Shown here: one piece after another, positions 8,573 to 31,194 of the stretch
Position numbering within the stretch: position 1 is the first letter of the stretch
How the letters are laid out: every line of letters begins with the position of its first letter
DNA from: Escherichia phage 503458
Sequence record: NC_049341.1
Length of the DNA: 31,194 bases
Direction: 5' to 3' (one strand)
The notes under the pieces: model-generated
The model's database searches: none
Seen by the model: only the letters and a program-made list of their open reading frames with translations
Told to the model about the DNA's origin: nothing
Program-made: the position numbers and the translations under genes

Positions 8573-8581
8573 TTTAACACA

Positions 8582-10177: not shown

Positions 10178-10180
10178 TTT

Positions 10181-10708: not shown

Positions 10709-10713
10709 AAATT

Positions 10714-10733
10714 AAGGCCCGCTATCGGGCCTT
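10714..10733. terminator. Hairpin between the two convergent tfa genes
   Basis: AAGGCCCG-CTAT-CGGGCCTT. Confidence 0.5.
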
Positions 10734-10736
10734 GTC

Positions 10737-11270: not shown

Positions 11271-11272
11271 CG

Positions 11273-13258: not shown

Positions 13259-13260
13259 GC

Positions 13261-14680: not shown

Positions 14681-14683
14681 GAT

Positions 14684-15034: not shown

Positions 15035-15612
15035 TGCGGGCCTCCTGTCGAATCGCTGCCACCTTTCACGCCACCGTGTTTATGCGTATGCACGGTAATG
15101 CCGTTTGAGGTGAAATTGCCGCCGCTGTGCGTGATATTGCCGCTCATCTTTCCCCCTTTTGTGACGTCAAGCGTCGCTGTTCTCAGAAGGTCTGTGCATT
15201 CCACGACAGGTGTGTCCAGTGTCACACTGACGGATGCCTGCAGGGTGGCCGTTTTCATGCCGCTGGCGCTCAGTGCGCCTGCGTCCGCGTCGTAGCGGAA
15301 CACCGCGCCATCCGGCGCGCTGACCACGATTTCTTTCAGGCTTTTGCCGGGTGCCGGAATGGCATCACTCCACAGACTGCCAATTATCATGGCGGTTTCC
15401 GGGTTGCCGCCAATGCAGGCAATTACCACCTGTTCGCCTGGTGATGGCGGCAGCCACACATTGAAGGCTCCCGCGCGCGTGGTGTTCCAGCGCAACCAGC
15501 CTGTTTCCAGTTCGCCGCTGCGAACGCGCACGCGCCAGGACTTCTCATCAACTTCAGAGATGATCCCGGTGCGGATGATATTGCTCAGCAGTCGCATGAG
15601 TTCTGCGCTCAC
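15031..15612 (-). CDS. V: Baseplate spike protein gpV
   Basis: 193 aa, OB-fold spike N-terminus and Gly-rich C-terminal tip (…HTHKHGGVKGG…). Confidence 0.8.
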   Translation of the reverse strand: MSAELMRLLSNIIRTGIISEVDEKSWRVRVRSGELETGWLRWNTTRAGAFNVWLPPSPGEQVVIACIGGNPETAMIIGSLWSDAIPAPGKSLKEIVVSAPDGAVFRYDADAGALSASGMKTATLQASVSVTLDTPVVECTDLLRTATLDVTKGGKMSGNITHSGGNFTSNGITVHTHKHGGVKGGSDSTGGPQ

Positions 15613-16253
15613 CGTACAGCCTCCGCAATCCGGCCCAGCACCGTGTTATAAATCAGGCGCTCATCTGCCTGGCTGATACCCAGCAGCTCACGTACCGGGT
15701 AATCGGTGAAAATGCCCGGCGCAACCTGATCGCGCTCACCGAACTGATGAACGCGTGCAATACGTGCGGCCACGCCGCTGTAACCCACCGTCACACCGGA
15801 AGCATCTGCACGGGCTTTCAGGTAGCGGGCGGTGCGCAGTTTTACGAACATGGGGACGCGCTTTGTGCTGTCCTGGTTGATGCGCCGGGTGCGTATTTCC
15901 AGAAAACGGTCGATGTCATCCCGGTAAAACGTGCGGATATTGTTTTTATCCTCATCCCACCCGGTAATGGTTCGCCCGTATTTCCCCGTGTCGTGATGCC
16001 AGTTTTTCAGCGTGCGTGCTTCGTTATTCCAGATAAAGCGAATGCGCTCCTGTATCCGGGTTACGCGGCGTCTGCGAGGTGTCCACGCGGTCCCGTCCGG
16101 CGCTTTCTGTGACCGGATACGTGCCTGCTGGGCGCGGCGTAAATCCTGTGCCAGCTTTCTGGCGATGTTATTGATGGCCTGCTGATTCAGGCCGTCGCGG
16201 ATGGCCTCAAAGGTTTCATCCACGCGGGTGAATGCCTTATCCATCGCTTTCAC
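15609..16253 (-). CDS. Tail completion / virion morphogenesis protein at the gpS position
   Basis: 214-aa ORF between R and V with overlapping start/stop; sequence itself not confidently matched. Confidence 0.55.
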   Translation of the reverse strand: MKAMDKAFTRVDETFEAIRDGLNQQAINNIARKLAQDLRRAQQARIRSQKAPDGTAWTPRRRRVTRIQERIRFIWNNEARTLKNWHHDTGKYGRTITGWDEDKNNIRTFYRDDIDRFLEIRTRRINQDSTKRVPMFVKLRTARYLKARADASGVTVGYSGVAARIARVHQFGERDQVAPGIFTDYPVRELLGISQADERLIYNTVLGRIAEAVR

Positions 16254-16704
16254 CCCACGTCACATCCTGGAATACATGCGACCAGTCGCCTTCGGAAGAG
16301 GGCAGGCGGGGTTTTGGCTCCGGCAGGTGTTCTGCCTGCGGCGCGCCCTGACTGCTGCGCGTGATGCGAACGCGTTCCCGCAGGGGGAGCGTAAACAGGA
16401 GATCGGCGCTGTCATCGTCATTGATAACGGCGGAGAATTTGATGTCCTGATTACGCTCCGGATTGAGCAACAACTGCGGCTGATTTTCGGATAACCACGC
16501 CAGTAGCGGCAGCGTGAGGTCGTCCAGCTCCCCGGTGTAATCCATGACAAACATCACCATCTGATAGCGGTAAACAAACGATGGGGTTTCTCCGGTCGTT
16601 TCAATGTTGCCGCTCTCCACGAAAATGGTGAATTTTTCCGGGTTGGCCTGACACCATCGGCATGAACGGGTCATGGCTTCACGCAGGGAATCAGTTTTCA
16701 GCAT
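16237..16704 (-). CDS. R: Tail completion protein gpR
   Basis: 155 aa, conserved position and size. Confidence 0.7.
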   Translation of the reverse strand: MLKTDSLREAMTRSCRWCQANPEKFTIFVESGNIETTGETPSFVYRYQMVMFVMDYTGELDDLTLPLLAWLSENQPQLLLNPERNQDIKFSAVINDDDSADLLFTLPLRERVRITRSSQGAPQAEHLPEPKPRLPSSEGDWSHVFQDVTWGESDG

Positions 16705-16981
16705 GGTTGTTATCCTCGTTGTTCAGTCGTTGCAGCCTGCGCTGTTCCAGTAATTCAATGGCCCGTTTATCCGCGTTACAGGTTTCCAGTGCATCCAGAA
16801 GGCGGTCGCCCCATATACCGAGATTTCCCCATGTGGGAGTATCAGGGAAGGGGGGAGGCGTTACCGGTATGGTCAGCGTCTGCGGTATAAGCCGGACTGA
16901 CGGCGCTGGCCGTGGCGCGTTCTGCGTGCCTGCGCAACCTGTCAGTAAAACGAGCGTCAGGCAAAGCGTGGGCGCATTCAT
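16691..16981 (-). CDS. Outer-membrane lipoprotein spanin (LysC/Rz1-like), overlapping lysB in another frame
   Basis: Signal peptide with lipobox LLTGC, Pro-rich mature part; overlapped-spanin architecture. Confidence 0.6.
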   Translation of the reverse strand: MNAPTLCLTLVLLTGCAGTQNAPRPAPSVRLIPQTLTIPVTPPPFPDTPTWGNLGIWGDRLLDALETCNADKRAIELLEQRRLQRLNNEDNNHAEN

Positions 16982-17249
16982 CTTTTGCAATATCGTTGCG
17001 TAGCTGTTCACGTCTGGCCTCTCCGTCCTGATTGCGTTGCTGATTTTCCGCGCGGAGCTGTGCCAGCACCTGCTGCATATCCTGTACCCCGGCGCTGATG
17101 ATATTCAGGGTGTCGACGGTACTTTTCAGGGTGCTGGCCTGCGCTTCGTTTCTGGCGTTCTCCCGGCCCAGTGACCACGACAGACGCATGGATGCTCCCC
17201 ATCCGGCAATCAGAAGGAAAGCGACGCCAAGCGTGGGCCAGAGCTTCAT
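16842..17249 (-). CDS. Inner-membrane spanin (LysB/Rz-like)
   Basis: N-terminal TM helix MKLWPTLGVAFLLIAGWG followed by coiled-coil; ATGA overlap with endolysin stop. Confidence 0.6.
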   Translation of the reverse strand: MKLWPTLGVAFLLIAGWGASMRLSWSLGRENARNEAQASTLKSTVDTLNIISAGVQDMQQVLAQLRAENQQRNQDGEARREQLRNDIAKDECAHALPDARFTDRLRRHAERATASAVSPAYTADADHTGNASPLP

Positions 17250-17638
17250 GCCGGATAGGCTCCGTGTGGTAACTGAAAATGCGGTCCGTCTTTCAGGGTC
17301 TTCCAGTCGCCGCCCCATTCCACCGGAATATTCAGTTCCCGGCTGGCCTGTCTGAATGCTGCTGCGATTTTTTCGTACAGCGGCCATTCCCATGACACCT
17401 GGCTGCCGATATAAGCCACAACATCCACGGCATGCCCCGTAAGGTGGCGGCTGTTCATGGTCTGGCTCTTACCCGTGGCCACCAGTTGCTTCTGGCGGTA
17501 ACGGCTGCGCAACCCTTCGGTGATACCAAAATCCACTTCCGAGATTTCCAGTGCCCGTCGGGTCACTTTCACCAGATCAGGATTTACGCCCTGCAAATTC
17601 TTTTCGCTCCGGCTGCTGAATTTAAATGTGTTGCTCAT
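17246..17638 (-). CDS. Endolysin, zinc peptidase type (M15-like L-Ala-D-Glu peptidase)
   Basis: 130 aa with SRHLTGHAVDV … DGPHFQL motifs typical of M15 endolysins; lysis-cassette position. Confidence 0.7.
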   Translation of the reverse strand: MSNTFKFSSRSEKNLQGVNPDLVKVTRRALEISEVDFGITEGLRSRYRQKQLVATGKSQTMNSRHLTGHAVDVVAYIGSQVSWEWPLYEKIAAAFRQASRELNIPVEWGGDWKTLKDGPHFQLPHGAYPA

Positions 17639-17973
17639 TCGTCCTTCTCCTTCACCCTGCGATTAAAGGCCGCAATAACCTTGTCGCGTGCTTTCTCTGC
17701 ACCCATAAAACCGATTGATGCGCCGATAAACGTCACGGCATCTTCAGGAAACCCGAAGAAGCGCAACGACCCGGCCACGGCCATGGCAAGAACGCCGCAC
17801 GCCAGCGATCCCGTTACGGTCTGAACCAGTGTTCGTCCGTCATAAAGACTCATCAGCGCGGAAATGCTGACCGCCGCGCCTACTGCATACACCGTTGGCA
17901 GGTGGTCAAAGAGCCACGCAATAACCTGCTCTGTGATCCCTGTTTGAATGGTGCTCACTGCTACTCCCCCCAC
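17635..17973 (-). CDS. Putative holin
   Basis: 112 aa, several hydrophobic segments, charged C-terminus, immediately upstream of endolysin. Confidence 0.6.
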   Translation of the reverse strand: MGGVAVSTIQTGITEQVIAWLFDHLPTVYAVGAAVSISALMSLYDGRTLVQTVTGSLACGVLAMAVAGSLRFFGFPEDAVTFIGASIGFMGAEKARDKVIAAFNRRVKEKDE

Positions 17974-18161
17974 AACTGAATCATTTCTCGTTTCTTCTTC
18001 TCCGGCTCCGGCATCTCAACTTCCTGCCCGGCGTCCAGAAATACCTGCTGACAGAGTCCGGGGTTGGCATCCAGCACCTTTTCGGTGACGCCCTGCGTCG
18101 TGCCGTAGTACCGGAAACAGAGCGAATCCACGGTGTCGCCTTCCAGTGCCTTCACTTTCAT
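17961..18161 (-). CDS. X: Tail protein gpX (LysM-like), 67 aa
   Basis: MKVKALEGDTVDSLCFRYYG… resembles P2 gpX; start overlaps L stop. Confidence 0.8.
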   Translation of the reverse strand: MKVKALEGDTVDSLCFRYYGTTQGVTEKVLDANPGLCQQVFLDAGQEVEMPEPEKKKREMIQLWGE

Positions 18162-18664
18162 CAGCACAACTCCGCAAAGATTCGCGGGCGGCACAGAATG
18201 TCAGAGATGGCCCAGCTCACATCACGCCACAAATCCGATGTCTGTATATCCAGAGCGTCCGCCCGGCGGTCGCCCTTGTCCGTTGTGTCTGCATCACGAT
18301 AACGCTCCAGAATCAGGGCGCGCGTGGCGGTATAAACAGCATTGCGCCAGTGCCAGAGATTGACGCTTTCTCCGTTAATTACGGGTGCCGGAACATCGGC
18401 CAGCGTCTGATGGCCAGCTGCCTGCTGTTCCTGCTGCCATGCTTCCAGCTCGCGGGTAACGTGTGCCACAGCCCCGGTGGCAGTATGCAGCAGGCGGGAG
18501 GTGGTCACACGGCCCGGCAGTCGTACCGCCAGACGCAGCTCGCGCAGCACAATATCCGGCCAGAATGCACCCGCTGAAATGCGGGTATCGCCATCATCGG
18601 TATCGGTGATGTCGTCCTCTGCGGGTCTGGGTTCAGTTCTGGCAACCATACTCATGGGGTTCAC
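18161..18664 (-). CDS. L: Head completion/stabilisation protein gpL
   Basis: 167 aa at conserved position between M and X. Confidence 0.7.
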   Translation of the reverse strand: MNPMSMVARTEPRPAEDDITDTDDGDTRISAGAFWPDIVLRELRLAVRLPGRVTTSRLLHTATGAVAHVTRELEAWQQEQQAAGHQTLADVPAPVINGESVNLWHWRNAVYTATRALILERYRDADTTDKGDRRADALDIQTSDLWRDVSWAISDILCRPRIFAELC

Positions 18665-18757
18665 TCCTGAAAAAAATCGGGCGGTGGGTGCACGGTGTAA
18701 ACGGTCACGGAGTCAAACCGGAACACTGCGCACGCCGCCCGCTGACGGGGTCAGTCG

Positions 18758-19558
18758 TTAACCGCGCTTCGCCTTCTGCGTCGCGGTGGTTTTTCGTGTT
18801 GCAGGCTTCCGCGTTGTCTTTTTACTTTTGCTGCTTTCGTCCTGCGCCTGCTGTGCGCTGGCGTCTTCTGGTTCGGCTGCGGAATCGGCTTTTTTCAGGG
18901 CGCGGGAAAGGGTTGCAATCTCGCGTTTCACACCTGCGTTCGGGTTCAGGTGCATCGCTTCGCGCAGCAGCTTCAGTGACAGGGCCATGTTGTCTGCATC
19001 GGTCAGACCACGACGGGCAAAGGCGCACGCCTTGCATAATTTGGCGCGTACTTCGTCCGGCATGTCCTGGTCGGTGACAATCTTCCGGAGGGTGTCCAGT
19101 GGTTCGATAAAGGCGGACAAATCTGCGTCGGCATCCGCTCCGGCCTGCGTCAGTACCGGGTTGCAGATTTCTTCGGTCAGTACCGTGGCAGCAGTACGGC
19201 CAAAGTTATCCGGCATGATGAGGTTGTGACAGACCACATACGCACCAATACGCAGCGCCAGCGGAAGATCGCCGCAGTCAATCGCCCACACCATCAGCGT
19301 GGCAATCACTTCATCCTGCTGCCCGCCGTCAGCCTCCAGCGTTCCCTCAATCCAGCCGGAAAAATCCGGCAACAACTCTTTTTTGATGGCGGCTTTCGCG
19401 CTTCTGGCCTGTACGCCCTTAAGCCGGGCCTGTGCCAGACGCAGACGATACAGCACCTCTTCATGCGCGGTACGCGCGGCGTGGTCCACGCCTTCATTCG
19501 CCCGGCCTGCGCGCTGTGCCATCACGTTCTGCCAGTGTTGCTGTGCAGGAGTAATCAT
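18758..19558 (-). CDS. M: Terminase small (endonuclease) subunit gpM
   Basis: 266 aa, …MPDEVRAKLCKA… and basic Lys/Thr-rich C-terminal tail, P2 M-like. Confidence 0.8.
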   Translation of the reverse strand: MITPAQQHWQNVMAQRAGRANEGVDHAARTAHEEVLYRLRLAQARLKGVQARSAKAAIKKELLPDFSGWIEGTLEADGGQQDEVIATLMVWAIDCGDLPLALRIGAYVVCHNLIMPDNFGRTAATVLTEEICNPVLTQAGADADADLSAFIEPLDTLRKIVTDQDMPDEVRAKLCKACAFARRGLTDADNMALSLKLLREAMHLNPNAGVKREIATLSRALKKADSAAEPEDASAQQAQDESSKSKKTTRKPATRKTTATQKAKRG

Positions 19559-19603
19559 TTTTTCTCTCCGTTACAGGCGGGCATGATGCCCGCCGTGAGT
19601 TGA

Positions 19604-20656
19604 TTAGCTGTCGGCGAACTTCAGGCCAGTGACCATCGCGCACTTGCCATAGTCTTCAACGACATAAGCGTCATTGATGGACTGGTAGGTGGCGATGCGG
19701 TTGTATTCCGGCTCGTCTTTCATCAGGCGACGCATTGAACCTTTCTGCCAGTAAATCGACAGGTTGTTGAACGAGGTGATCAGCATCGTTGCATCCGGGA
19801 AGAACGGCGCAAGGAACACGCCCAGCCCGCCAATGGTGCGCGATGACAGGATGAGCTGCCCGGCGAGTAATTCCGCATTGGGATTCTGGCCGCTGATGCT
19901 GTTCAGCACGGGCAGACGCAGCGAGTTAAACAGGTTGCGCCCCATAATCACCACGAGGTCGTCAGCTTCCTTGTGCCATTCATCCAGCAGGGATGAGCGC
20001 GCGTCCTGTACCAGTGCATCAGCATTCGCATACTTACCCGCGTGCGCCACGGTGTTGTCCATGTTACGGGAGGTCAGCGTCACGTCATTCATAACGCGCT
20101 CGCTGGCGTCGGTTCTGATGTGCTCCAGCCATCCCACGTTAACGTCCTGAAGCAGCTTGTTGGTGCTGAAGTTGGACTCATCCGCGTGAGACGTGCCGTT
20201 GAAACCGATCATGATGCGGTCAAGCGCCACCTGTCGGGCAATCTGTGCGCTGATGCGGGACTGAAAATCAGGGTGTGCCGCCCAGGCATCAAGCTGCGGA
20301 TATGAAATAAACGTGTCGTAGTTCACCTGTTCGCACTGGTATTTGCGGTTTTTCAGATCAACCACGTTATTCGGGTTACGGCGTTTTGTGCCGTCATAAC
20401 TGGTATTCGTGCGCGCAATCGGCCCGGTGGTATCCAGGAGGATTTTTTCACCTTTCTGGTCGGTCACGCCGATCACGTTAATTCTTTTTGTAAATTCGGT
20501 GCTTTCCTTTGAGGCGTTTTCAAAACGCTGCTGTACCGAGGGTTCCACGGTAAATCGCGATACCAGTGCGGAAATCGGGATATTGTTAAGCGACGCCTGC
20601 TGCGCCATATAGCAACCCAGCTTGTTGCGGGTAATATCTGACATCACCAGATTCAT
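19604..20656 (-). CDS. N: Major capsid protein gpN
   Basis: 350 aa, …FTVEPSVQQ…YDTFISYPQLDAW…LITSFNNLSIYWQ…YVVEDYG… resembles P2 gpN. Confidence 0.9.
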   Translation of the reverse strand: MNLVMSDITRNKLGCYMAQQASLNNIPISALVSRFTVEPSVQQRFENASKESTEFTKRINVIGVTDQKGEKILLDTTGPIARTNTSYDGTKRRNPNNVVDLKNRKYQCEQVNYDTFISYPQLDAWAAHPDFQSRISAQIARQVALDRIMIGFNGTSHADESNFSTNKLLQDVNVGWLEHIRTDASERVMNDVTLTSRNMDNTVAHAGKYANADALVQDARSSLLDEWHKEADDLVVIMGRNLFNSLRLPVLNSISGQNPNAELLAGQLILSSRTIGGLGVFLAPFFPDATMLITSFNNLSIYWQKGSMRRLMKDEPEYNRIATYQSINDAYVVEDYGKCAMVTGLKFADS

Positions 20657-20679
20657 AAAAAATTTGCTCCTTTGTCTTA

Positions 20680-21515
20680 TCAGAAGTCAGCCAGCTGGTC
20701 GGAGGCTGCGCCCGTTGCGGTGAACCGGTTCTGCGGATCGCCGTCCTGCGTGCGCAGTTTTTCCTTCAGTGCTGCCAGCTCTGTGGTCAGTGAAGTGATT
20801 TTCTGGCTGTCCTGCTGATGGCGGGTTTCCAGTGCATTAAAACGGTCGATAATGTCGGCCTGTGACGTTGCGACGCCTTCCACCGCTTCCTGAATGCGGG
20901 AGAAACTGGCGTCATCCGCTTTGCGGCCACGGCCAATAATCCCCATTACGCGGTTAAACCACTGGGTGCCTTCTTCCTGGCGTTGTTCTGCCATTTCGAT
21001 GATTTCAGACTCGATGGTTTCGGAGATAAGCGGTGCTTCACCCTGGACACCGTTGAACGTCATCACCGCCTGACGTTGCTGTGCCGTGAATTTCAGGCGC
21101 TCAGTGCCCAGGCTTGCCGGGGTGTCGGTCATCGCCAGCCCGACCAGATAGGCGCGCCCGTTAACGGAGAACTGCGGGTGCAGTTCGATACTGGAATAGA
21201 TTTTCTTGCCGTCCGCGACAAGCTGCTTCATGCGCTCGGTCGGTTCGATTTCTGCATACAGCGCAGTACGTCCGGCCAGCGGGCCTTCCGTAATATCTTC
21301 CGTACTCAGCGCGGTGACATCGCCCATTGCGGAAAATTCGCTTGACGGGCATGGCGAGAGATAGTGCTCAACGTTCACGCGGGCAGCGTAAACATCCGGG
21401 TTGAAGTTCTCGGGGCTTCACGCAGATGTACCGGACTGATTTCGCGGCCATCAACAGTTGATCCGGAGACAGCCACGCGAAACTTTTTGCGGGATGTCTT
21501 TTTTTCATTAGCCAT
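20680..21515 (-). pseudogene. O: Capsid scaffold protein gpO with one single-base frameshift near codon 45 (~21415)
   Basis: N-terminus MANEKKTSRKKFRVAVSGSTVDGREI… in one frame, remainder (…NVEHYLS…AYLVGLAMTDTPASLGTERL…) in another. Confidence 0.75.
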
Positions 21516-21669
21516 AGTTTTTGCCCCTCTGACTGGTTCTTCAGTCATGATGGCAAAGCGTAACAGGCTGATACAAAGGGCTTTTGTTGTAAGAAAACGG
21601 CCAGAACAGGGGGTTAAGGAGAACGGTTTCGCGCGCGGGTAATCTTCCTGTAATTACTCAGGGGGAGCA
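21516..21669. promoter_or_regulatory. Divergent late promoter region between O and P
   Basis: Only intergenic space between divergent capsid and terminase operons; no clean TGT-N12-ACA activator box found. Confidence 0.3.
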
Positions 21670-23417
21670 ATGATTCAGGACGCTTTTGTGCGCCAGCGTG
21701 CGCGGCAACTTTACTGGCAGGGTTATCCGCCCGCAGAAATATCACGTCTGATGGGAATAAACCCGAACACGATTTATGCGTGGAAAAAACGCGACCAGTG
21801 GGATGAAACGCACCCGTGCAGCGTGTCACGCAGTCCATTGATGCGCGCCTCATCCAGCTTACTGAAAAACAGAATAAAACAGGCGGTGACTTTAAGGAAA
21901 TAGACCTGCTGACCCGGCAGCTTAAAAAGCTGCATGATGGCCAGCCGGATGTGATGGCCGCAGGAAAGAAAGGCCGGGCGAAAAAACTCAAAAATCATTT
22001 CACGCCGGAACAGATTGCCGCACTGCGGGAAAAATCATCAGCAGGCTGGAGTGGCATCAGCGGGGCTGGTTTGACTCCCTGACCCTTTGCAGGGAAGCCG
22101 GGATACGTAACAGGATGATCCTGAAATCCCGACAGATTGGGGCGACCTGGTATTTTGCACAGGAAGCACTGCTGATGGCGCTGCGTGACGATGTGGCGCA
22201 ACCTTACCAGCGTAACCAGATTTTTTTGTCTGCGTCGCGTCGTCAGGCGTTCCAGTTTAAAAGCATTATTCAGAAGGCCGCGGCTGAAGTTGATGTGGAG
22301 CTGAAAGGGGGCGATAAAATCATCCTCTCCAACGGCGCAGAGCTGCATTTTCTCGGCACTTCTGCTGCGTCGGCACAGTCCTATACGGGCAATTTTTATT
22401 TTGATGAATTTTTCTGGGTCAGTCGCTTTGCTGAACTGCGCAAGGTGGCTGGCGCTATGGCAACCCTCAGCGGACTGCGGCGCACCTACTTCTCCACGCC
22501 ATCCACCGAAACGCACGAGGCATACGCCTACTGGAACGGCGACCGCTGGAACGAGAAAAAGGCCTCGCATAAACGCCAGCGTTTTTCTGTGGACTGGAAA
22601 ACGCTGCATAACGGGCTTATCTGCCCTGACCGGACGTGGCGGCAAATTGTCACGCTGGAAGATGTGGTTAATCACGGCTGGAAACACACCGATATCGACG
22701 AAATTCGTGATGAAAACACCGAAGACGAGTTCCTCAATCTCTATATGTGTGAGTTTGTCCGCGAAGGGGAATCGGCATTTAACCTGAATATCCTGATTGG
22801 CTGCGGCGTTGACGGATACGACGACTGGAAAGACTGGAAACCTTTTGCTCCCCGCCCGATGGGAATCGTCCGGTATGGATTGGGTATGACGCAAACGGCA
22901 GCAGTGGCAACGGCGACAGCGGCGCTGTGTCCGTGGTGGTTCCTCCGTCTGTTCTGGTGGCCGTTTTCGAACGGTGGAGACGCGACGCGTTCAGGGGCTG
23001 GAGTTTGAAGAACAGGCCAGAGTCATTGAAGAGTTCACGTGTCGCTACAACGTGGAACACATCGGCATTGATGTGACGGGCGGGAACGGGGAGGCTGTTT
23101 ATCAGATAGTGAAACGGTTTTTCCCTGCCGCTATTCCGTACACCTTCACGCTGTCATCAAAACGGTCGCTGGTACTGAAAATGCTGCAAATAATGCGTGC
23201 CGGGCGGTGGGAATACGATCGCGCCGAACGCGAGCTGGTCGCGGCCTTTAACGCCGTGCGTAAGGTGAAAACACCGGGCGGCTTTATCACTTACGAAACG
23301 GACCGTGCGAGGGGGATCAGCCACGGCGACCTTGCGTGGGCAACCATGCTTGCTGTCATTAACGAACCGATTGGCGGCGAAGGAGAAAACGAGCGTTTCA
23401 CGGTTATGGAGTTCTGA
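21670..23417 (+). pseudogene. P: Terminase large (ATPase) subunit gpP, split over at least four frames by single-base indels
   Basis: Successive ORFs 21670-21903, 21816-22082, 22115-23008, 22974-23417 read as one terminase-like protein when frames are joined. Confidence 0.75.
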
Positions 23418-24530
23418 TGAGCAGAAAAAATAAAAAATTGCGCATGAGTTCACGCATTGATCTCGCTGATGCGCTCAGGAAAGAATCGTCGCTCAGTGCA
23501 TTCACATTTGATGGTCCTTACCGCTGACCGGGCATGACCTGCTGGACAATATGTACTGTGCTGATAACGGTCGGTGGTATGAAACCCCGGTGGACTGGTA
23601 CGGTCTGGCAAGAGCTGCCCGGCAAACGTCCTGGCATCAGTCTGCGCTTTACTTTAAGCGCAATGTATTACTCGGTTGCTACATCCCGCACCGCTGCTTT
23701 CCCGGCAGGATTTCTCGGCGCTGGACTGGTTTGTGTTCGGTAACGCATTTCTTGAGCTTCGAAGCAATATGCTCGGCGAACCGCTTAAATTACGGCACGC
23801 CCTGGCGAAATACATGCGACGCGGAAGCGATCTTGAATCATGGTGGTATGTGCAGGATGGCAAGGACGCGTTTCAGTTTCGCCCTGGCAAAGTGTGTCAC
23901 CTGATGAATCCTGACATTAACCAGGAAATCTACGGCATGCCGGAATATCTCGGCGCATTACTCTCGGCCAGCCTGTCTCATTCGGCGGACATGTTCAGAA
24001 AACTGTATTACGACAACGGATCCCACGCCGGGTGCATCATCTACATGGTGCAGCGCAGGTAACCGCGAAAGCATGGACTCCCTGAAAGAAACGCTACAGG
24101 GTGCGCGTGGTGGTGGTGCGTTTAAAAACGTGCTCATTCATGCGCCCAACGGGGGCAAAGAGGGGGTGCAAATTTTGCCGTTCCAGCAGATCACCGCAAA
24201 GGATGAGTTCATGAATGTTAAGGCGGCATCCCGTGATGATGTGCTGGCTGCGCACCGCGTTCCGCGCAACTGATGGGGGCGATGCCGGGTGAAAAAAGTG
24301 CGTTTGGTGATGTGGAGAAGGCCGCGCGGGTTTACGCAATTAACGAGCTGATGCCCGTCATGGAGGCCATGAAGCACATCAATGACTGGCTTGGCGAAGA
24401 GGTGATCCGCTTTAACCCTTACGCACTGTTAGACATCCAGCCACATCCTGACGCGCTTCGCTTGTCTGCTGCTTCGCCGGGGCATAAAAAATTTATGCCC
24501 CGATCTCCAGCTCCTGTATCAGTCAGATAA
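23417..24530 (+). pseudogene. Q: Portal protein gpQ, fragmented by several frameshifts; 3' end uncertain
   Basis: ATGA overlap with P; fragments at 23417, 23551, 23676, 24073 and 24273 lie colinear in different frames. Confidence 0.65.
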
Positions 24531-24893
24531 TTTCACGACGCCTTCCAGTTTATCGCCACCATCGACGGTCAGACTCTTACGCAATCCACCGCGTTGACTG
24601 CATGTTCTCGCCGCCTCAGTGCGATTTTGACGGCCTTACCTTTCACCCCATAAATCAGAATCCTCACGTATTTTTCACGCTCAGCGTGAGAAATACGGCC
24701 ATTCTGTCGTGTCGCTGCGATCGTTAAGGAGCGCTATTTACCCCTGAAACGCGGGCTGTTCCCCGTCACCTGCGCGCAGAAAAACGCGTTTTTTTGTGCA
24801 CGCACGGATCCTTGACGGATCCAGCCGCCATGCGGGCCGGAAGTACAAAAAGTCGTTCAAAAAATTGTGCAAACTTGTGCACTATCGTGCAAA

Positions 24894-24917
24894 CAAAAAA
24901 GCGCCTTATCGGCGCTT
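24894..24917 (-). terminator. Possible rho-independent terminator for leftward transcription
   Basis: On the minus strand GCGCC-GATAA-GGCGC followed by TTTTTTGTTTG. Confidence 0.4.
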
Positions 24918-25213
24918 CAAAAGTATCAATTGTTGCTGTGTATTAATCGCCAACCACGAACATATGCTTCATAGGCATCTCTGTGCTTACAGTTCAGCCT
25001 GGCTAAACGGAATGTTAGCTAAAACTAAATCATTCTGAGCCATAGCGCGTCCTTCAAGCGCATCTTTTATGCCTAGCTCAAAAGCACAGGCAGCGCATTT
25101 GTGCCGACCTTCTTGTCCTTGATATTCAGGGAGAGACAGAATGTTGGGTTATAACGATGAGGGTTCTTGCAAATACCTGTTTTAGCCCGCACTTTATTTA
25201 CCTCATAGGAAAA

Positions 25214-25293
25214 ATATGCGTGCCTTTACAGAGGTGCGTGTAAGCAATAAATATACGACGCACATTTTGAACTACTTCGGAAGGCACGCATAT
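25214..25293. repeat. Perfect 13-bp inverted repeat (ATATGCGTGCCTT / AAGGCACGCATAT) separated by ~54 bp
   Basis: Direct reading of sequence; internal region also partly self-complementary. Confidence 0.7.
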
Positions 25294-25320
25294 CAGGTTA
25301 AGTGAGTCCGACCGAGTTTT

Positions 25321-25354
25321 ACGCCCCAATAGTTGCTGCTATTGGGGCGTTTTG
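25321..25354 (+). terminator. Rho-independent terminator (plus strand)
   Basis: ACGCCCCAATAG-TTGCTG-CTATTGGGGCGT 12-bp perfect stem followed by TTT. Confidence 0.55.
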
Positions 25355-25463
25355 CATGGACAATGCTGCGCAATTATCTTGTCGCTCACAATGCGAACGA
25401 TCTTACAAAAAGGCACATTACTGTCAAGTAATTGATCGTTTTAATCGATAGATAATAGACAAT

Positions 25464-25864
25464 CTATTTGTTTAACAGATCGATTATTGAAGTAAGTGTG
25501 CCAAATGGAATGATACTGTTTCTATAAACGTGAGCATTTTTCGCGCAGATGCTTTTACCAGGAAATAACGCCCGGATATTCCCAGCCATCTGGCTGGTTA
25601 TCTTAGCCACTGGTGCAGACTGTGCTTCAAACTTTTTTGAGCTGATTTGTGTCACAGGTAACATCTCATCATCAGCCATGCGGCCAGTCGGTAAGCCTCT
25701 GCCGGATTCATTTTCAGAAGTGCCAGCCCGGCCAGAAAAGCCACGCGTTGGCCGCTTTTGCGGGCTTCCGGTGTAAGGCTGTCCAGCCAGGCGCATGCTT
25801 CGCTTTCGTTCTTGACGGCCGCAGGCTTCAGATAGAAACTTATCCGCCTGGTTGGTGTCGTCAT
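25464..25864 (-). pseudogene. parR: ParR/StbB-like partition adaptor, one frameshift near 25655
   Basis: MTTPTRRISFYLKP…RVAFLAGLALL… then …NIRALFP… in a second frame, resembling plasmid R1 ParR from memory; AAGGAG RBS. Confidence 0.55.
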
Positions 25865-26815
25865 TGGTTTACTCCTTGTCCATTGCGTACAGCCCATTAA
25901 CCAGAGCAAACTGTGGCACCCCGTCCGCGATGAAAGTCGCATTAACTCCGCAGGCTTCGCGGATAGCGGGTGCCACAATCTCCGCCCCGCCACCGACAAC
26001 CATCACCCCCGTAACCCGAAAAACCCGCCAGCGCGCGGATCACGCGTTGTTTCAGTGTTTCTTCCTTTTCACGAATAACCGCCATCAGGCTGGCGTAATG
26101 CGCGTCATTGTGGATGTGCTGGCGCAGCCAGGCTTCATCATGGCGATGTTCGATAATGGTATTGGCGATGTGGTGACTGGTACGCATACCGTTAGTGGCC
26201 ATCACCGACAGTACTGCATCAGCCATCAGGGAAACGCCTACGTGTGGATCGCAAAACACCTGGCTGATACCTGCCAGTTGTCCCTGAACCTTTGCCACAT
26301 CCAGCGTGGTTCCACCTAAATCCACAATCAGCAGGGATTCAAACGGACTCATGTCAGCCAGTGCTTTAAAGCCAGCCGGAATGGATTCAGGCATAACCCG
26401 TACATTACGGATAGTGAATGCTTCGCCGTTCTGGTATTCCACGGGCGCATAACGTTTGCTTTTTTGCGGTTGATGTTGGCCATGTGGCTGTGTCGAAATA
26501 CTCGCTCAGTGGCAGGGTGACAACCACATCCACCTCCTGTGGCGTGATGCCTGATTTGACCAGCGCGTGATGAATGGCAATGACATTCACATCGCTGTAC
26601 TGGTATTGCGTGTCGGTCGTCTGGATAAAGCGATCGCTGACCGGATCAAAACCATAGCGCACGCCATCAAGCATGTAGTTCGCGGGCTGCGTGCCACCGA
26701 ACGGCGCAGACCATTCCGACTTGAAGCTGTTCGGGCTGATGGCGTTGCGGCGTTCGCCGTTCTCAGTCCATGCCAGCTTGATGTTGGTGGAGCCGTCGTC
26801 GATACAAATTTTCAT
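25865..26815 (-). pseudogene. parM: ParM/StbA-like actin-family partition ATPase, at least two frameshifts (~26440 and ~25990)
   Basis: N-terminus MKICIDDGSTNIKLAW…ISPNSFKSEW…YQYSDVNVIAIHHALVKSGI… closely parallels R1 ParM from memory; second fragment contains IVDLGGTTLDV phosphate-2 motif. Confidence 0.7.
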
Positions 26816-26845
26816 GTCGATTTTCCTTATGTTGATTAATTAACC

Positions 26846-26957
26846 GTTTACGGGATTCTGAAATCCCTCTTTTGCCTGTTTTGTGCGTGCTTCATATCGC
26901 GGCACGTTTTTTGCTCATTTACGGGATTTGTGAGTCCCGTTTCTGTCTGTTTTTTGT
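26846..26957. repeat. Two ~40-bp direct repeats, each containing a 6-bp-arm palindrome, upstream of parM (candidate parC-like centromere/operator)
   Basis: GTTTACGGGATTCTGAAATCCCTCTTTTGCCTGTTTTGTG and CATTTACGGGATTTGTGAGTCCCGTTTCTGTCTGTTTTTTG. Confidence 0.6.
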
Positions 26958-27093
26958 TTCCACTGGTCAGGCTACCCCGCAGCAGGTCTGCTTTGCGGTG
27001 GGCGCGTTCAGTGGTTTCACTGATTCTCTGTGCGTGCTCTGCGTCACGGATGGCGCGCAGCATGTCAGAAAGCACGGTAACGGGGGTTTTCAT
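26848..27093 (-). CDS. Small hypothetical ORF downstream of gpA; 3' half runs through the direct repeats, so true extent is doubtful
   Basis: 81-aa ORF in six-frame track. Confidence 0.3.
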   Translation of the reverse strand: MKTPVTVLSDMLRAIRDAEHAQRISETTERAHRKADLLRGSLTSGNKKQTETGLTNPVNEQKTCRDMKHAQNRQKRDFRIP

Positions 27094-27223
27094 GGTGTTC
27101 TGGTCTTGCTGAAGTGTGGATGCCAGGCGTGCGGCGGCTTCAGGGTCTGATGCCCCCAGCTGTTCCAGATAGCTGGCGACCGGGTTATGGCGGATCTCCG
27201 TGCTGCTTACGCCGTGATACGGC

Positions 27224-29547
27224 TCAGGCGTTGCCAGAGCTGCGTGATTCGGCTGTCCGGGCGGGTATCCGGTTTGCGTACAATTTCAAATCCCTGCGGT
27301 GCAATGATGCTGCCGTCAACGTACAGACTGCCGCCCGTAACAGGTGCTGCATCTGCTGTTCACCAATATGCAGGCCGAGAGATTCAGCAGACTCCCGCCA
27401 TTCTTTAGCGAGTAACTCGTGGTTATCAGGCAAAGGCTGTGGCTGTTTGCGGCTCTGTGTCCAGTTCTGCATTTCATCGCTGCTGTTTTTTGCCTGTTTG
27501 TCACGAAGCGAACGCATCAGCGCCCGGCGTTCGTGCCGTTTCAGTGAGCGCATCCATTCGTTCACGTCAACGCCGTCAGGAAGCTGCGGCCACGGTGCTG
27601 GCCGTTCTTCCGGCTGTTCTGTCCCGTTGTTGTCCGTTTCCTGTACACGGGGACAGTTATTGCCACGAGTCCAAGGGGCGGCAGGGCCGCCCTGAAGGTC
27701 AAAACCATTTTCGCGGGCGCTGTCTTCCGCTTCCGGTTTACGTCTTACCAGCTTCCAGTTATCCGGGTGCGTGCACACGCGGGAAGATTCCCCGATTTGT
27801 GGCGACCAGATCCCGTAAATCTGTACGCTTTGCTCGCCGTAATCGTTCAGCTCTTCTGCGAGGTCGTAGGCGGTGCGAATCAGGTAATCCTTGCGTGGAA
27901 CAAGTACGCCACCCTGTTTCTCAATGTAGGTGGCAAAACACCCGGCATCAGCGGCAGCGAGTACCGCATCCATTGCGTCATTTTCCAGACGTTGTGGACC
28001 TTCCGGGCTGCGGGCCATCTGACTGGCAAGGCGGCGGAGTTCACGCCATACCTGACGGGAGGGGATACCAAAGAACTGGAACTGGCGGACGCGGTGAAGG
28101 CGCGCCCAGCCGATGGCGCGTTCCACGCTCTCGGCCATTGATTTTCCGGTTTCGTGATCAACGCGTGGCTTGCCTGTTTTCGGGTCAATGCCATCCACGG
28201 CGCGGCTGTCCAGGTTCTTTCCGATGTAGGTGGCGCGTACCTTTCGAACCGTCGACGTACTCTGCCTTAAAGCGGAGTTATGTCATTGCCCAGCTCGTGG
28301 CGGTCTTCGCGAATGGCAATATCACGGGTGATGTCCACGATGCTGTCGATTTCTTCAGGATGTGCAAAGACCATCATGTGCCAGTGCACGGTGCCGTCAT
28401 GGTGTGGCTCCACCGTGCGGATGCCATACCAGCGCAGGCCGTCGCGGTTCAGTTTTTTGCGGACTAAAAAAAGTGTTAACCAGGTAATCGCTGGAATCGC
28501 GCATGGTGGTGCTGTTCCATTTGGGATTCGGATGACCGCTCTCCGTTGTTGCGTGATATTTTGACGGGCAGGTAACGGTCAGAAATACCGCTTTGTCGCC
28601 ACGGGCTTCGGCCAGAAGTTCCAGCCCCTTCATGGTGGCCATCATTTCTGCCTTACGGTGGACCGGGTTACTTACTCCCGCGTAATACACCGTCTCGAGA
28701 TCAATCGTGAACCCGTCTTCATTTTCCAGCATGAAACTTTTCAGGAAATCGCGTGTTTTCTCGCGCTGTGCGCGAAATTCACTTAATGCGTCCTGACTCA
28801 GATAGGGGGATGTTTTTCTGGAAACCAGACAGGCAGCGCGGAGTTGTTCCTCTCTCCATTCGCAACGTAAAAGCCACAATTTGCGTTTCCACCAGTCCGC
28901 ACAGGTCAGGCGGAGGATTGCACCCGGCAGCAGTTCCGTGTCCGGTTCGTTCTTCCGGTCTTTGTCTGTTGTCAGTGCGTCATAATGCGGCGGCACTGTC
29001 TGCAGATGTAACGCCATGCGGGCCAGCATCTGATACGCCTTCAGCGTTATATCCATGGTCAGCTCGCCGTCGATCGCGCCAAAGTCATCGCAGAGTTTTT
29101 CGAAGGTGCTGCTGAACATCGCCGTCATGACGGCCAGCGTCTGTATCTGGTGCTTGTTGAGCTGTGGCAGGTACAGCAAATCGTCCAGACGTTCACGTCC
29201 GGCAAGGGAGCGATAACCCGGAGTCAGCCAGCGACGGTCGGTGCGGGCCAGACGTTCGAATATTTTGCGCAGGGTTCCGCTCGCATAGCGTTCTGCCTGC
29301 TGGTTCTTTTTGCCTTTCTGGCGGTCAGATTCCTGTTTTTTGCGCAGGAAAGAGAGATGGCGGATAAGCGGATCACGCAGATAGGACGGCAGCAGACGCA
29401 GTGCGGCAATTGCTTCATCCACGCACCGCGTGCCTGCTTTCTGGCTTCTCTTGCCAGTGTGATGGCTTTGTCCTGTTTTTCCTGTGCGTCCAGGCTTTTA
29501 TTAATCAGATTGCCCAGCGGTGCGGCGGAGAACGCCGCATCAGCCAT
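27224..29547 (-). pseudogene. A: Rolling-circle replication initiator gpA (HUH endonuclease), split over at least four frames
   Basis: Fragments 29547-, 29422-28397, an HUH-containing piece (…HHDGTVHWHMMVF…) and 28198-27224 are colinear; tyrosine motif region (EYV…ATYIGK) is split by a frameshift. Confidence 0.7.
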
Positions 29548-29706
29548 TTCCTGGCGGCGCTCGTTCTCTGCCCGGTAGGCATCCAGCCAGGAAGAAAGAA
29601 GGGAGGGACGGACAGACTCCCCCGTCCCTCGCGACCGACTGCATGGCGTGGTTGTTGCCAGTCTCTGATGTACTCCGTTGCCACGCCGACTACTCCGCCT
29701 TGCCGC

Positions 29707-30050
29707 TCAGTGCATTGTGGCAGACGGTAGCCAGCCGCTGGATTGCATGGTGCTCTCTGTGCTGGCATAACGGTGTGTTATGCGAATGCTGTCAGCAATT
29801 ACATCAGCAATCAGAGATGAAGTTCGCTGGTAAATACCCAGTACGGAAGGCGTGCCGCTTTCGATGCGGGAAAGTGTGTAATCCTCCTGGCAGCTACCAA
29901 CCATGTAGCGCCCGTCAATAACAATCTGTCCGTCGGGAGCTGCTGTTCCGGCTGTGATTTCAGATACATTGCATAGCGGTCGAGAACGCGAATACCAAAA
30001 TCGCGCTCGGTTTTCAGCAGGTAATCAAAAAAGTTTTCGGCGAGAATCAT
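29707..30050 (-). CDS. Hypothetical early-region protein (~114 aa), apparent frameshift near 29905
   Basis: ORFs 29811-30050 and 29707-29904 are contiguous in adjacent frames; RBS AAGAGGA before ATG at 30050. Confidence 0.4.
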
Positions 30051-30191
30051 TGCGGCAATCCTCTTGTTGCAGATGTGCGAAGGCCTCCCGCCGCAAGGTG
30101 CAGGAAAGGCCCGGAACAGGAATTAACGGAGTTTGTTTTGCTGCCGGATGAGCTGCTGAAGCCCGACGTGGTTTCCGGCAGTAGGAGGTGC

Positions 30192-30437
30192 TCATGCTCT
30201 GATTTCCCTCAGTAGCTGGTTGAACATCTGGGTTAGTGGGTTGCTACACCCAAACGGCATCGGGTTTACCTGATAAGAAAAGCGACCGCCTGTTTTGCGT
30301 TCTTTTCTTATGACTGAACCGCTGCGCCAGAGACGGCGTAACTCCGCATTAATGGTTGTGGTTGGGGTAATCAGTGCTGCGGCGATTTCTCCACCACTAC
30401 AACCCGGATTGGCAGCGATGTAGTCCAGAATGGTCAT
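30192..30437 (-). CDS. Hypothetical small protein (81 aa), possible winged-helix DNA-binding protein
   Basis: ORF with ATGA-type overlap to the upstream ORF (translational coupling). Confidence 0.5.
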   Translation of the reverse strand: MTILDYIAANPGCSGGEIAAALITPTTTINAELRRLWRSGSVIRKERKTGGRFSYQVNPMPFGCSNPLTQMFNQLLREIRA

Positions 30438-30637
30438 CTGCGTGACTCCTGTACCTGTCTGATAAGATTCACCTGCACCACGTTGGTGGCGCAGAAGTAA
30501 GTGCCGTCAGTGAGATAGATGTGATGTGCATCCTTTTCTGAACGGTGTTTGTCGATTGTGGTAATCAGGCGTTCGTCAACTTCGTATTCACGTCCTCTGG
30601 AGGTGAAACGAACGACAGGAAAATGCTTAATTGCCAT
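30434..30637 (-). CDS. Hypothetical small protein (67 aa; start at ATG 30637 rather than track start 30688)
   Basis: AAGGAGG RBS 6 nt upstream of ATG at 30637. Confidence 0.5.
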   Translation of the reverse strand: MAIKHFPVVRFTSRGREYEVDERLITTIDKHRSEKDAHHIYLTDGTYFCATNVVQVNLIRQVQESRR

Positions 30638-30857
30638 TACGCCTCCTTGGCGTGTGCGAATACCTCCGCGAATGCGGATTGTTTTCACATTTTCTTATTT
30701 AACCTGGAGTCTTATTTGCGCGGTTATTCTTCAGTGAAAAAGCGTTCAATCTTTTTTTACAGAATTAATAATTCGCATAATCCCAATAGCGCAGGCCACC
30801 GAAATAAAACAAGCCATGAGATAAATATACTCATGCAATATTCCCAGTTTATATGGC

Positions 30858-31070
30858 TCAATATGGTCCCGTTTTCTGCGGCGCAGACGAGTACGGAAAG
30901 CTCGTCGAGCGCGTCCGGTCATCAACGTAAAAAGCCGTGTCGTACAGACTCTTGATGGCTCTGGTCAATGACTCTCGGGCTGCGCGTTCAGCATGAGCGC
31001 CTGATGCGTTTAAGCGAAAATGAAAGCGCTCAAGTGCTTTATTGACGAGAGTTTTATATTCTTTATCCAT
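30858..31070 (-). CDS. Hypothetical small early protein (70 aa)
   Basis: ORF in early-region orientation; function not recognised. Confidence 0.4.
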   Translation of the reverse strand: MDKEYKTLVNKALERFHFRLNASGAHAERAARESLTRAIKSLYDTAFYVDDRTRSTSFPYSSAPQKTGPY

Positions 31071-31081
31071 CGCAACGCCCT

Positions 31082-31194
31082 TTAATCTGCCTTCTGAATT
31101 TCAGCTTCTGAATCCATGCAGATAATTTCGAGGTAGGGTTTATCGCCATTAACCTGACGTGCTTTTTCAGCTTCGCTAATAATTTCGCATACGG
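31082..31194 (-). CDS. 3' end of a hypothetical ORF running off the right edge
   Basis: Open reverse frame ending …EIICMDSEAEIQKAD with stop at 31082-31084. Confidence 0.3.
   Translation of the reverse strand, partial: VCEIISEAEKARQVNGDKPYLEIICMDSEAEIQKAD

Follow-up and report, generated by a model that had tools for sequence, protein, structure and literature searches.

Small early genes upstream of the replication gene of a P88-like Escherichia coli prophage, read from a probably error-rich contig end

The 31,194-nt sequence of Escherichia phage 503458 (NC_049341.1), the whole of which was analysed and is called the window here, ends in a run of small open reading frames (ORFs) upstream of a gpA-type replication gene. 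A sequence-only reading had described these as uncharacterised, with a hydrophobic peptide and a hairpin among them, which raises the question of whether the locus holds new early genes or familiar ones in an unfamiliar state. Our answer, to which we give a probability of roughly 0.85, is that these ORFs belong to the middle part of an early lytic operon, that of a P88-like (Xuanwuvirus, Peduoviridae) E. coli prophage, read from an error-rich contig end. The odd features of the early block come mostly from small deletions near that contig end, and not from new biology.

Alignment of the window with the prophage of E. coli 510016 showed no mismatches, no insertions and 66 deletion events, which together remove 103 bases; 55 of the 66 events are single-base. 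They are confined to about 3 kb of one contig end (18 events in positions 1–3000) and 10 kb of the other (48 events in positions 21001–31194), with none in the central 18 kb, and eight fall within 29400–31194. Judged from this alignment, deletions alone, clustered at the ends, are what low-coverage consensus error would leave behind, and not what mutation would. Because both ends carry frameshifting deletions, ORF-level oddities near the ends of the contig are not to be taken as biology.

After correction, the order on the minus strand is the 92-aa gene (partial), the DUF4754 gene (80 aa), a 37-aa membrane protein gene, a 67-aa all-beta protein gene, an 81-aa winged-helix protein gene, a 141-nt scar, a 121-aa gene and then the 940-aa replication endonuclease gene from its GTG at 29684 (Table 1). 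The proposed run of small same-strand genes upstream of gpA is therefore present as six conserved minus-strand genes, and its placement in a P2-family early region was also right, as the block lies between cox and an A-type replication gene. Two of the suspected ATGA overlaps are real, at 30831–30834 (DUF4754/37-aa) and 30434–30437 (stop of the 67-aa gene and ATG of the 81-aa gene). The statement that none of the ORFs was recognisable reflects a reading made without search tools, since the corrected proteins match DUF4754, HTH_24/MarR_2 and PHROGs 3800, 2549, 3459 and 3237. The gene set is a known one, with an annotation for every gene both in RefSeq and in phage P88. Gene order and annotations agree with E. 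coli 510016, strain H3, phage 520873 and phage P88; synteny is kept in 58 IMG/VR loci, and also in E. albertii and Salmonella. With a DNA identity of at least 80%, 1366 of 5426 complete E. coli genomes have a match to the block. For every gene of the block, pN/pS was 0.16–0.34 in frame vs about 1 or more off frame, and by this measure the comparison shows purifying selection on all six small proteins.

Table 1. Features of the corrected early block, in positions of the window.
Feature	Position	Strand	Remarks
92-aa early protein gene, last 37 codons	31082–31194	minus	PHROG 3800; gene runs past window end
DUF4754 gene, 80 aa when intact	30831–31070	minus	PF15946
37-aa single-pass membrane protein gene	30724–30834	minus	MSIFISWLVLIISVACAIGIMRIINSVKKIERFFTEE in intact relatives
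Cargo slot 1, empty here; 86-nt spacer	30638–30723	minus	hairpin and ribosome-binding site of 67-aa gene
67-aa protein gene, intact	30434–30637	minus	PHROG 3459
81-aa stand-alone winged-helix protein gene, intact	30192–30437	minus	PGAP label 'MarR family'
Cargo slot 2, empty here; 141-nt deletion scar	30051–30191	minus	
121-aa protein gene	29690–30050	minus	PHROG 3237; probable divergent P2 Orf83/DUF5405 type
Inverted repeat (hairpin of the sequence-only reading)	29603–29630	minus	codons about 19–27 of replication gene
Replication endonuclease gene, 940 aa when intact	26892–29684	minus	P2 gpA homologue

The gene that enters the window at its end stops at a TAA at 31082–31084. Its 92-aa product is identical to WP_001366180 of E. 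coli 510016 and H3 and matched PHROG 3800 at 7e-54, with a pN/pS of 0.24 in frame vs about 1.1–1.4 off frame. We had considered the 92-aa and 67-aa proteins as paralogues, an idea that was dropped when BLASTP gave no alignment between them. The adjacent ORF, taken previously to encode 70 aa (30858–31070), is the 80-aa DUF4754 gene broken by three single-base deletions (at about 30918, 30870 and 30845), and just the first 51 residues stay in frame. The corrected protein scored 178.4 bits against PF15946 (E 3e-53, profile positions 1–80 of 80, gathering score 27 bits), and the pN/pS of the gene is 0.27.

The 67-aa and 81-aa ORFs are both intact, as had been claimed. The 67-aa protein is predicted from its model to be an all-beta small barrel, and structure comparison gave no functional match for this fold. 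The 81-aa protein (pN/pS of its gene 0.16) scored 22.4 bits against HTH_24, just above the cutoff of 21.9, and 23.8 bits against MarR_2, under the cutoff of 27. It also matched PHROG 1687 ('MarR family') at 1e-29, over positions 69–149 of the 162-position profile, while one profile, PHROG 19053, spans the 81-aa and 67-aa proteins together. A full MarR regulator was rejected as a description, because the protein has just the winged-helix part of a type that is about 140–160 aa long with flanking dimerisation helices. On these profile matches, 'stand-alone winged-helix protein' is the most fitting description.

The supposed 114-aa ORF is a broken form of the 121-aa gene, which the loss of 1 bp at 29934 and of 4 bp at 29744 splits in the window into ORFs of 79 aa and 65 aa. 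The 121-aa protein reached 18.5 bits (E 0.0028) against Pfam DUF5405 (PF17399), for which the cutoff is 21.6 bits. Among 1.84 billion representatives, a profile of the family found three intermediates, P0098 (2e-13), P0099 (2e-9) and P0108 (5e-4), which score 29.0, 21.6 and 37.7 bits, respectively, on DUF5405 against the same cutoff. With hhalign, the widened 121-aa profile aligned to residues 4–90 of P2 Orf83, a full-length match (E 1.9e-4, probability 47%). These profile links point to the 121-aa protein being a remote, divergent relative of P2 Orf83 (DUF5405). An AlphaFold2 model of it was unusable (pLDDT 53). The gene stops 5 nt short of the replication gene start on the same strand, and in other loci an alternative 129-aa allele occupies the same position upstream of the replication gene.

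The replication gene itself carries nine deletion events in the window. One of these, a 1-bp deletion at 29628, masks the true start codon, a GTG at 29682–29684, and the start had accordingly been placed at 29547. Conservation at the protein level covers the 46 residues at the N-terminus, the other clade starting with ATG, and the first 100 codons have a pN/pS of 0.28. It is the misplaced gpA start that makes the hairpin at 29603–29630 appear intergenic; it does not lie between the small genes and gpA, but inside the replication coding sequence.

What had been read as a 26-codon hydrophobic ORF marks a conserved small membrane gene. Its peptide sequence as first read is that of a frameshifted 37-aa gene: a 4-bp deletion at 30807 causes the frame to be lost after residue 10, with residues 11–25 out of frame. 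The ORF is also one base off, its true position being 30757–30834 and not 30756–30833. The surrounding gap is AT-rich as described (GC 0.39 for the 220 bp of 30638–30857 vs 0.53 window-wide). The gene is present in 58 of 58 IMG/VR loci, full length in 55 of them, and intact in all 12 Xuanwuvirus phage records; the small peptide is thus strongly conserved, and homology to P2 proteins with a known function does not extend to every ORF of the cluster, so that the outcome named beforehand as refuting the sequence-only reading was not obtained. It is annotated as 'membrane protein' in P88 and as WP_000021660 in strain H3. Its pN/pS was 0.30–0.32 in frame vs about 1 off frame. In locus L065 the 37-aa protein retains 81% identity vs 45% for the neighboring DUF4754 protein. 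Hydropathy over a 19-residue window peaks at 2.7 for residues 3–21, followed by a tail with K28, K29 and R32. At the equivalent position in Salmonella there is a transmembrane (TM) analogue.

Leaving the 4-bp deletion aside, an extra A in the A-run at 30746–30760, which is shared with 510016, would give a 30-aa allele ending in SVKKD; such +A alleles were seen in 510016, the window, L013, L014 and L037. The gene carries an in-phase A_AAA_AAG, a dnaX-type −1 slippery site, and a −1 slip there would yield exactly the 30-aa product of the +A alleles. From this motif, the 37-aa protein may be produced in two forms by −1 slippage. In its predicted topology the protein spans the inner membrane, the N-terminus outside and the charged tail cytoplasmic, and it would modulate a host membrane function in lytic growth. 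More conserved than its DUF4754 neighbor, it may be a phage early effector that targets the inner membrane of the host, where it might affect exclusion, division or some other membrane process. The conserved peptide is a modest lead.

Two positions in the block are empty here and hold cargo elsewhere. Other P88-like loci carry 0.4–1.1 kb of extra genes in slot 1, where the hairpin of the window (30654–30688) has a fold z of −2.75, with 1 of 200 shuffles as stable, and shows one compensatory change in locus L041 (CCGC/GCGG to CTGC/GCAG). In slot 2 the scar begins with 27 nt, followed by the 13 last codons and stop of a lost 'derepression protein' gene (30123–30164, GLQQLIRQQNKLR), and ends with a nearly invariant 72-nt leader (30051–30122) holding a hairpin at 30082–30112 whose stability was no greater than that of shuffles. 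The retained 3′ end, of the P88 gp14 type, is in a frame other than that of the proposed 56-codon ORF (30025–30195); the scar's two remaining frames are represented by this ORF and by a PGAP 'ash family' remnant. Flanked as they are by almost invariant non-coding anchors such as the 72-nt leader, the slots could be accessory-gene exchange points in P88-like phages. The joint picture of a 37-aa early effector made in two forms, with the slots as exchange points, is an unlikely one that we put forward only tentatively.

Four rival explanations were weighed. The deletions might be genuine, the window then being a decaying, non-functional prophage with its early and replication genes as pseudogenes. 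The 510016 prophage, which the window matches end to end, is already defective through an IS100 inside its tail sheath gene, and several assemblies share the +A allele of the 37-aa gene. Decay of this kind is nevertheless very unlikely to have produced 66 deletions, most of them single-base, with zero substitutions or insertions over 31 kb and the central 18 kb spared, and similarly split genes occur in phage 520873, a sister record that likewise comes from India. As for the 56-codon ORF, it is open as stated, in all nine 'empty-slot' sequences compared, and its ATG overlaps the winged-helix stop in an ATGA, as would be expected if it were a genuine small gene whose translation is coupled to that of the winged-helix gene. 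It spans the scar, however, and shows no coding constraint, with all six substitutions among the nine sequences being nonsynonymous. It consists of the 3′ end of the lost derepression-protein gene and the non-coding leader read in the wrong frame, extends 26 nt into the 121-aa gene, has no family match in Pfam, PHROG or NCBIfam and is absent as such from phages with cargo in slot 2; that it is a gene is hardly credible.

The hairpin at 29603–29630 might likewise be a terminator or attenuator parting the small genes from the replication gene, as it has a terminator-like pattern of 10 pairs followed by CCTTCTTTCT, and a different palindrome, CGGGGATCCCCG, occupies this position in the other P88-like clade. 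Such a role is highly improbable for an element located 54–81 nt into an ORF whose N-terminus is conserved at the protein level. The base missing at 29628, a G, falls in the hairpin arm, and the perfect stem exists solely due to this 1-bp deletion. The fold is no better than shuffled (z = −0.9 with the missing G and −1.0 without; −2.2 and −0.6 for the clade B versions), and the tail, CCUUCUUUCU, is C/T-mixed with no U run. The small hydrophobic ORF in its AT-rich gap, finally, invites comparison with type I toxins under antisense RNA control. Toxins such as Hok, Ldr and Fst are small, with an N-terminal TM helix and a charged tail, and the 37-aa protein is alike in having fewer than 40 residues, a single TM helix at the N-terminus and a short charged tail at the C-terminus. 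There is also a terminator-like hairpin on the opposite strand (30665–30678), and the spacer downstream of the gene is the structured slot 1 region. Yet we consider a toxin very unlikely, as the overlap of the ATG with the DUF4754 stop in all 58 loci implies that the gene is read within the operon rather than from a promoter of its own. Around it, neither strand showed a promoter-like site, Rfam gave no match to an sRNA or toxin-leader family even with E up to 1, no toxin family matched in Pfam, NCBIfam or PADLOC, and the opposite-strand hairpin would stop a transcript short of the peptide gene. Unlike the type I toxins, then, the 37-aa gene is predicted to be translationally coupled inside an operon, with no promoter, antisense RNA or leader family of its own found and with no sequence match to any toxin family.

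We return to the reading of the region as part of an early lytic operon. In P2, the early genes of the Pe operon are transcribed together from the early promoter once the phage infects or is induced, and they are not expressed in the lysogen. By analogy, the genes of the block would be co-transcribed from an early promoter upon induction or infection and silent in the lysogen, and the overlapping ATGA pairs would be translationally coupled. The winged-helix protein would bind DNA, and the Orf83-like 121-aa protein would cooperate with the replication protein, its invariable downstream neighbor. A promoter scan found no sigma-70-type promoter inside the block, the Pe region itself falling outside the window. 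An Rfam scan of 28800–31194 at E up to 1 returned just two chance-level matches to eukaryotic or viral families; PDB sequence searches with four of the proteins gave nothing meaningful, and NCBIfam and PADLOC made no family or defence-system assignment for the block proteins. Functional work on these early genes (including DUF4754, DUF5405 and DUF4761, and P88/Xuanwuvirus) was not found in the literature searched. The results leave current views unchanged; for the annotation of P88-like prophages they supply corrected gene models, a link between the 121-aa protein and Orf83, and a map of both cargo slots.

The closest known system is P88 (Xuanwuvirus P88, NC_026014), where gp05–gp09, gp15 and gp16 are the same genes in the same order as in the window. 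The same block is found in phage 520873, Citrobacter phage phiSM and many E. coli prophages, and the order shared by P88-like phages and the window ends with the 940-aa replication endonuclease, then ParM and a partition protein. Protein identity between the block and P88-like phages is 67–100%. Between its winged-helix and 121-aa genes, where the window has the 141-nt scar, P88 carries about 2 kb of cargo, which codes for an SPFH lipoprotein and for Ead/Ea22-like, membrane and derepression proteins; the window differs further in the frameshifting deletions of its copy.

Comparison with P2 reveals a more distant resemblance. P2 is without the DUF4754, 37-aa membrane, 67-aa and winged-helix proteins, and BLASTP of the six small proteins at E up to 10 detected no homologue of P2 B, Orf78, Orf80, Orf81 or Orf82. 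The sole match below E 0.5, between the 121-aa protein and Orf81 (E 0.004, 46 residues), is weak and overlaps the region assigned to DUF5405. In a tblastn search of 50,697 phage records, the 37-, 67- and 121-aa proteins were found only in Xuanwuvirus. By these searches, the small proteins other than the 121-aa protein have no detectable P2 homologues and are confined to P88-like phages (Xuanwuvirus). The suggestion of genes of the P2 B/orf80–83 type consequently holds for the 121-aa gene alone, as a probable distant Orf83/DUF5405 relative. Shared with the P2 early operon (cox, orf78, B, orf80, orf81, orf82, orf83, A) is the arrangement of small same-strand genes between cox and the replication endonuclease. 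The replication protein is homologous to P2 A (30% identity, 3e-90), with 940 aa here vs 761 aa in P2. In both, a gene that is orf83 in P2 and probably of the Orf83/DUF5405 type here lies directly upstream of A; P2 orf83 overlaps the A start, and the product of its probable relative in the window has an extra N-terminal helical extension of about 40 aa.

The feature under study (29548-31194) is a gene block already known and annotated in a named phage genus; deletions in the window, or a deletion scar, account for the curiosities picked out by the sequence-only reading. Megablast of 29400-31194 matched 1366 of 5426 complete E. coli genomes as well as P88-like phages (genus Xuanwuvirus, Peduoviridae), the top matches being Escherichia phage 520873 and the chromosome of E. 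coli 510016 (99.2% identity, with the 0.8% difference consisting of gaps alone). Base by base comparison with the 510016 prophage over all 31,194 bases of the window gave no mismatches and no extra bases, and 103 bases were missing in 66 deletion events, 55 of them of a single base. Eighteen events fell in 1-3000 and 48 in 21001-31194, with none in the central 18 kb (3001-21000). The 510016 version, reading frames intact, was also found in independent relatives (E. coli strain H3, Escherichia phage P88 and 58 IMG/VR contigs). A truly decayed prophage copy, in which the deletions are real, is the minor rival here; the deletion-only pattern at both contig ends looks like low-coverage consensus error rather than mutational decay. 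Other ORF-level findings near the window ends are likely to be distorted in a similar manner.

Once corrected for the deletions, the gene map is as tabulated, with all genes in the feature on the minus strand. For each listed gene pN/pS was 0.16-0.34 in the annotated frame and about 1 or more in the other two, which shows purifying selection on every gene of the block. An ORF previously sized at 70 aa is a real gene, although its true product is the 80-aa DUF4754 protein; a gene also lies where 114 aa had been proposed, and this encodes 121 aa and appears in the window as ORFs of 79 aa and 65 aa.

Features of the block and its surroundings, corrected for the deletions in the window
Feature	Coordinates	Strand	Remarks
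92-aa protein, last 37 codons	31082-31194	-	PHROG 3800
DUF4754 protein, 80 aa	30831-31070	-	DUF4754, 3e-53; three 1-bp deletions in window
37-aa membrane protein	30724-30834	-	ATG overlaps DUF4754 stop
GTA AAA AAG run	30746-30760	-	within 37-aa gene
Spacer, 86 nt (slot 1)	30638-30723	-	empty cargo slot
67-aa protein	30434-30637	-	intact; PHROG 3459
81-aa winged-helix protein	30192-30437	-	intact; ATGA overlap; HTH_24 barely over cutoff, MarR_2 under cutoff; PHROG 1687
Non-coding scar, 141 nt (slot 2)	30051-30191	-	empty cargo slot
Leader, 72 nt, non-coding	30051-30122	-	
Leader hairpin	30082-30112		
121-aa protein	29690-30050	-	1-bp and 4-bp deletions in window; PHROG 3237; remotely linked to P2 Orf83/DUF5405
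Replication endonuclease, 940 aa	29684 down to 26892	-	GTG start
Inverted repeat	29603-29630	-	codons about 19-27 of replication gene
ParM and ParR-like genes	about 25555-26815	-	
IS100 site	about 2100-3900		by correspondence with locus L006 28518-30319

Where a 26-codon hydrophobic peptide had been proposed there is a conserved gene of different sequence and length, annotated as 'membrane protein' in P88 and as WP_000021660 in E. coli. Its product in intact relatives is MSIFISWLVLIISVACAIGIMRIINSVKKIERFFTEE; in the window CTGA is missing at 30807, which breaks the frame, so that residues 11-25 of the proposed peptide (FRWPALLGLCELLIL) are out of frame. Lack of conservation of the peptide was part of what would have refuted the earlier proposal, and this refutation fails: the gene was intact in 12 of 12 Xuanwuvirus phage records and present in 58 of 58 IMG/VR loci, where it overlapped the DUF4754 stop every time. 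Variable codon positions were third (18), first (12) and second (8), with a pN/pS of 0.32. In one locus the protein was 81% identical where DUF4754 was only 45%, and at this same position a relative from Salmonella encodes a 50-aa TM protein whose core is similar. The hydropathy profile points to a single TM helix (residues about 3-21), with a tail rich in Lys/Arg behind it. As neither a promoter-like site nor an Rfam family match was found around the gene, and no toxin-family match for its product, this is an operon gene and not a free-standing toxin locus.

The window and 510016 carry one additional A in the GTA AAA AAG run, giving a 30-aa ...SVKKD allele that was also seen in three IMG/VR loci (L013, L014, L037). 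The gene contains an in-phase A_AAA_AAG motif, whose first A varies among variants, and a -1 slip there would end the protein after ...SVKKD, yielding the 30-aa product of the one-A-longer allele. That slippage could produce two isoforms is speculative.

The gpA start had been placed at a Met (MADAAF...) with a hairpin lying between it and the cluster. The actual start is GTG 29684, missed because of a 1-bp deletion at 29628; the 46 residues ahead of that Met are conserved as protein, and the second clade of P88-like phages (clade B) starts the gene with ATG (MTAEYIRDWQQPRHAVGREG...). The hairpin therefore falls within the replication gene. Its perfect stem is partly an artefact, because the missing G sits in the left arm, and its fold energy is ordinary for G+C-rich sequence (z = -0.9 with the G, -1.0 without). 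At the same position clade B has a palindrome of different sequence with an invariant core, CGGGGATCCCCG (L017, L022, L029, L030), also of unexceptional folding energy.

Directly after the replication gene, as in P88, lie ParM and ParR-like partition genes; in the window both carry frameshifts. For a chromosome-integrating P2-family phage, a segregation pair of the actin type is unusual. Separately, IS100 (IS21 family, istA/istB) splits the tail sheath gene of the 510016 prophage; the window matches this IS100-bearing sequence end to end, and the prophage is therefore defective for tail assembly.

The 141 nt between the winged-helix and 121-aa genes are a deletion scar. At this position (slot 2) P88 and most relatives carry 0.9-2 kb of cargo, encoding an Ead/Ea22-like protein, a 67-aa membrane protein, an SPFH/Band_7 lipoprotein (2.5e-30), an HTH protein and a 76-aa Derepression-family protein (PF25738, 1.2e-7). 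The window retains the last 13 codons of the derepression gene, GLQQLIRQQNKLR and a stop (P88 counterpart ...LQQLIQQQNKLH and a stop), and the 72-nt leader after them. A possible 56-codon ORF noted here is no gene, being the derepression-gene end and leader read off frame, and six of six substitutions among nine sequences were nonsynonymous. The PGAP label 'ash family, partial' is the third frame of the scar, again no gene. In cargo-bearing loci that frame is a 205-aa ORF with a Pfam Phage_ASH match; it covers the entire 76-aa derepression gene, which shares its strand but not its frame (L017 4656-5276, L022 5167-5784 and others); it is likely that just one of the two is real.

The P88-like early operon holds two cargo slots, both empty here (compared loci: L017, L020-L025, L030, L038, L056, L057, L061, L068). 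Slot 1 carries 105-138-aa proteins in other loci, with no Pfam match above cutoff among four scanned. Across P88-like phages (the window, L004 5432-5504 and about 50 IMG/VR loci) the leader before the 121-aa gene is nearly invariant while its surroundings vary: the upstream cargo differs, and the downstream gene is represented by 67%-identical alleles or a 129-aa alternative. In the few places where the leader does change, its hairpin stays paired. It has no U run or Rfam match, and may serve as a regulatory RNA structure or as an anchor for recombination.

Being too short for a canonical MarR, the 81-aa protein is a stand-alone winged helix. The 67-aa structure model is confidently all-beta (pLDDT 85), resembling CheW/SH3-like and FlbD-like small barrels generically only. 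A single profile, PHROG 19053, covers both proteins, and this, together with the ATGA overlap of their genes, suggests that they work together. One database protein (P0004) has the N-terminus of the 37-aa protein fused to the 121-aa protein; it points to a prophage with the 67-aa and winged-helix genes deleted, so that prophage carriage, at least, would not require the pair.

By tblastn the 37-, 67- and 121-aa proteins were confined to Xuanwuvirus records. Among 185,579 species representatives, the DUF4754-marked block occurred in just 3 (E. albertii, Salmonella enterica and a 'Vagococcus' contig of enterobacterial appearance). Roughly one in four complete E. coli genomes carries it.

The gene set, its order and overlaps, per-gene selection and the two variable slots are direct observations; no publications on the functions of these proteins were found. 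In P2, the early operon Pe is repressed by C. By analogy, the block would be transcribed as a single early message upon induction or infection, with the ATGA pairs translationally coupled. The winged-helix protein is a predicted DNA binder, the Orf83-like 121-aa protein may aid or regulate the replication protein always next downstream, and the 37-aa protein would sit in the inner membrane, changing a host membrane function in lytic growth.

No resemblance to P2 B or Orf78-82 was found in the remaining small proteins. Four results tie the 121-aa protein remotely to P2 Orf83/DUF5405. Scored directly against Pfam DUF5405 it gave 18.5 bits, below the cutoff of 21.6. When 1.84 billion representatives were searched exhaustively with a profile, just 29 relatives emerged, three of which (P0098, P0099, P0108) reached the DUF5405 cutoff, and the widened profile aligned to the whole of P2 Orf83 (E 1.9e-4). 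The 129-aa protein that replaces the 121-aa one in some loci had no Pfam match and looks by eye like relatives of the P0098/P0099 type. The structure model of the 121-aa protein was unusable (pLDDT 53), but its order of secondary-structure elements (two helices, four strands, two helices) fits an Orf83 core extended at the N-terminus. In P2, orf83 lies directly before A, just as the 121-aa gene lies before the replication gene here.
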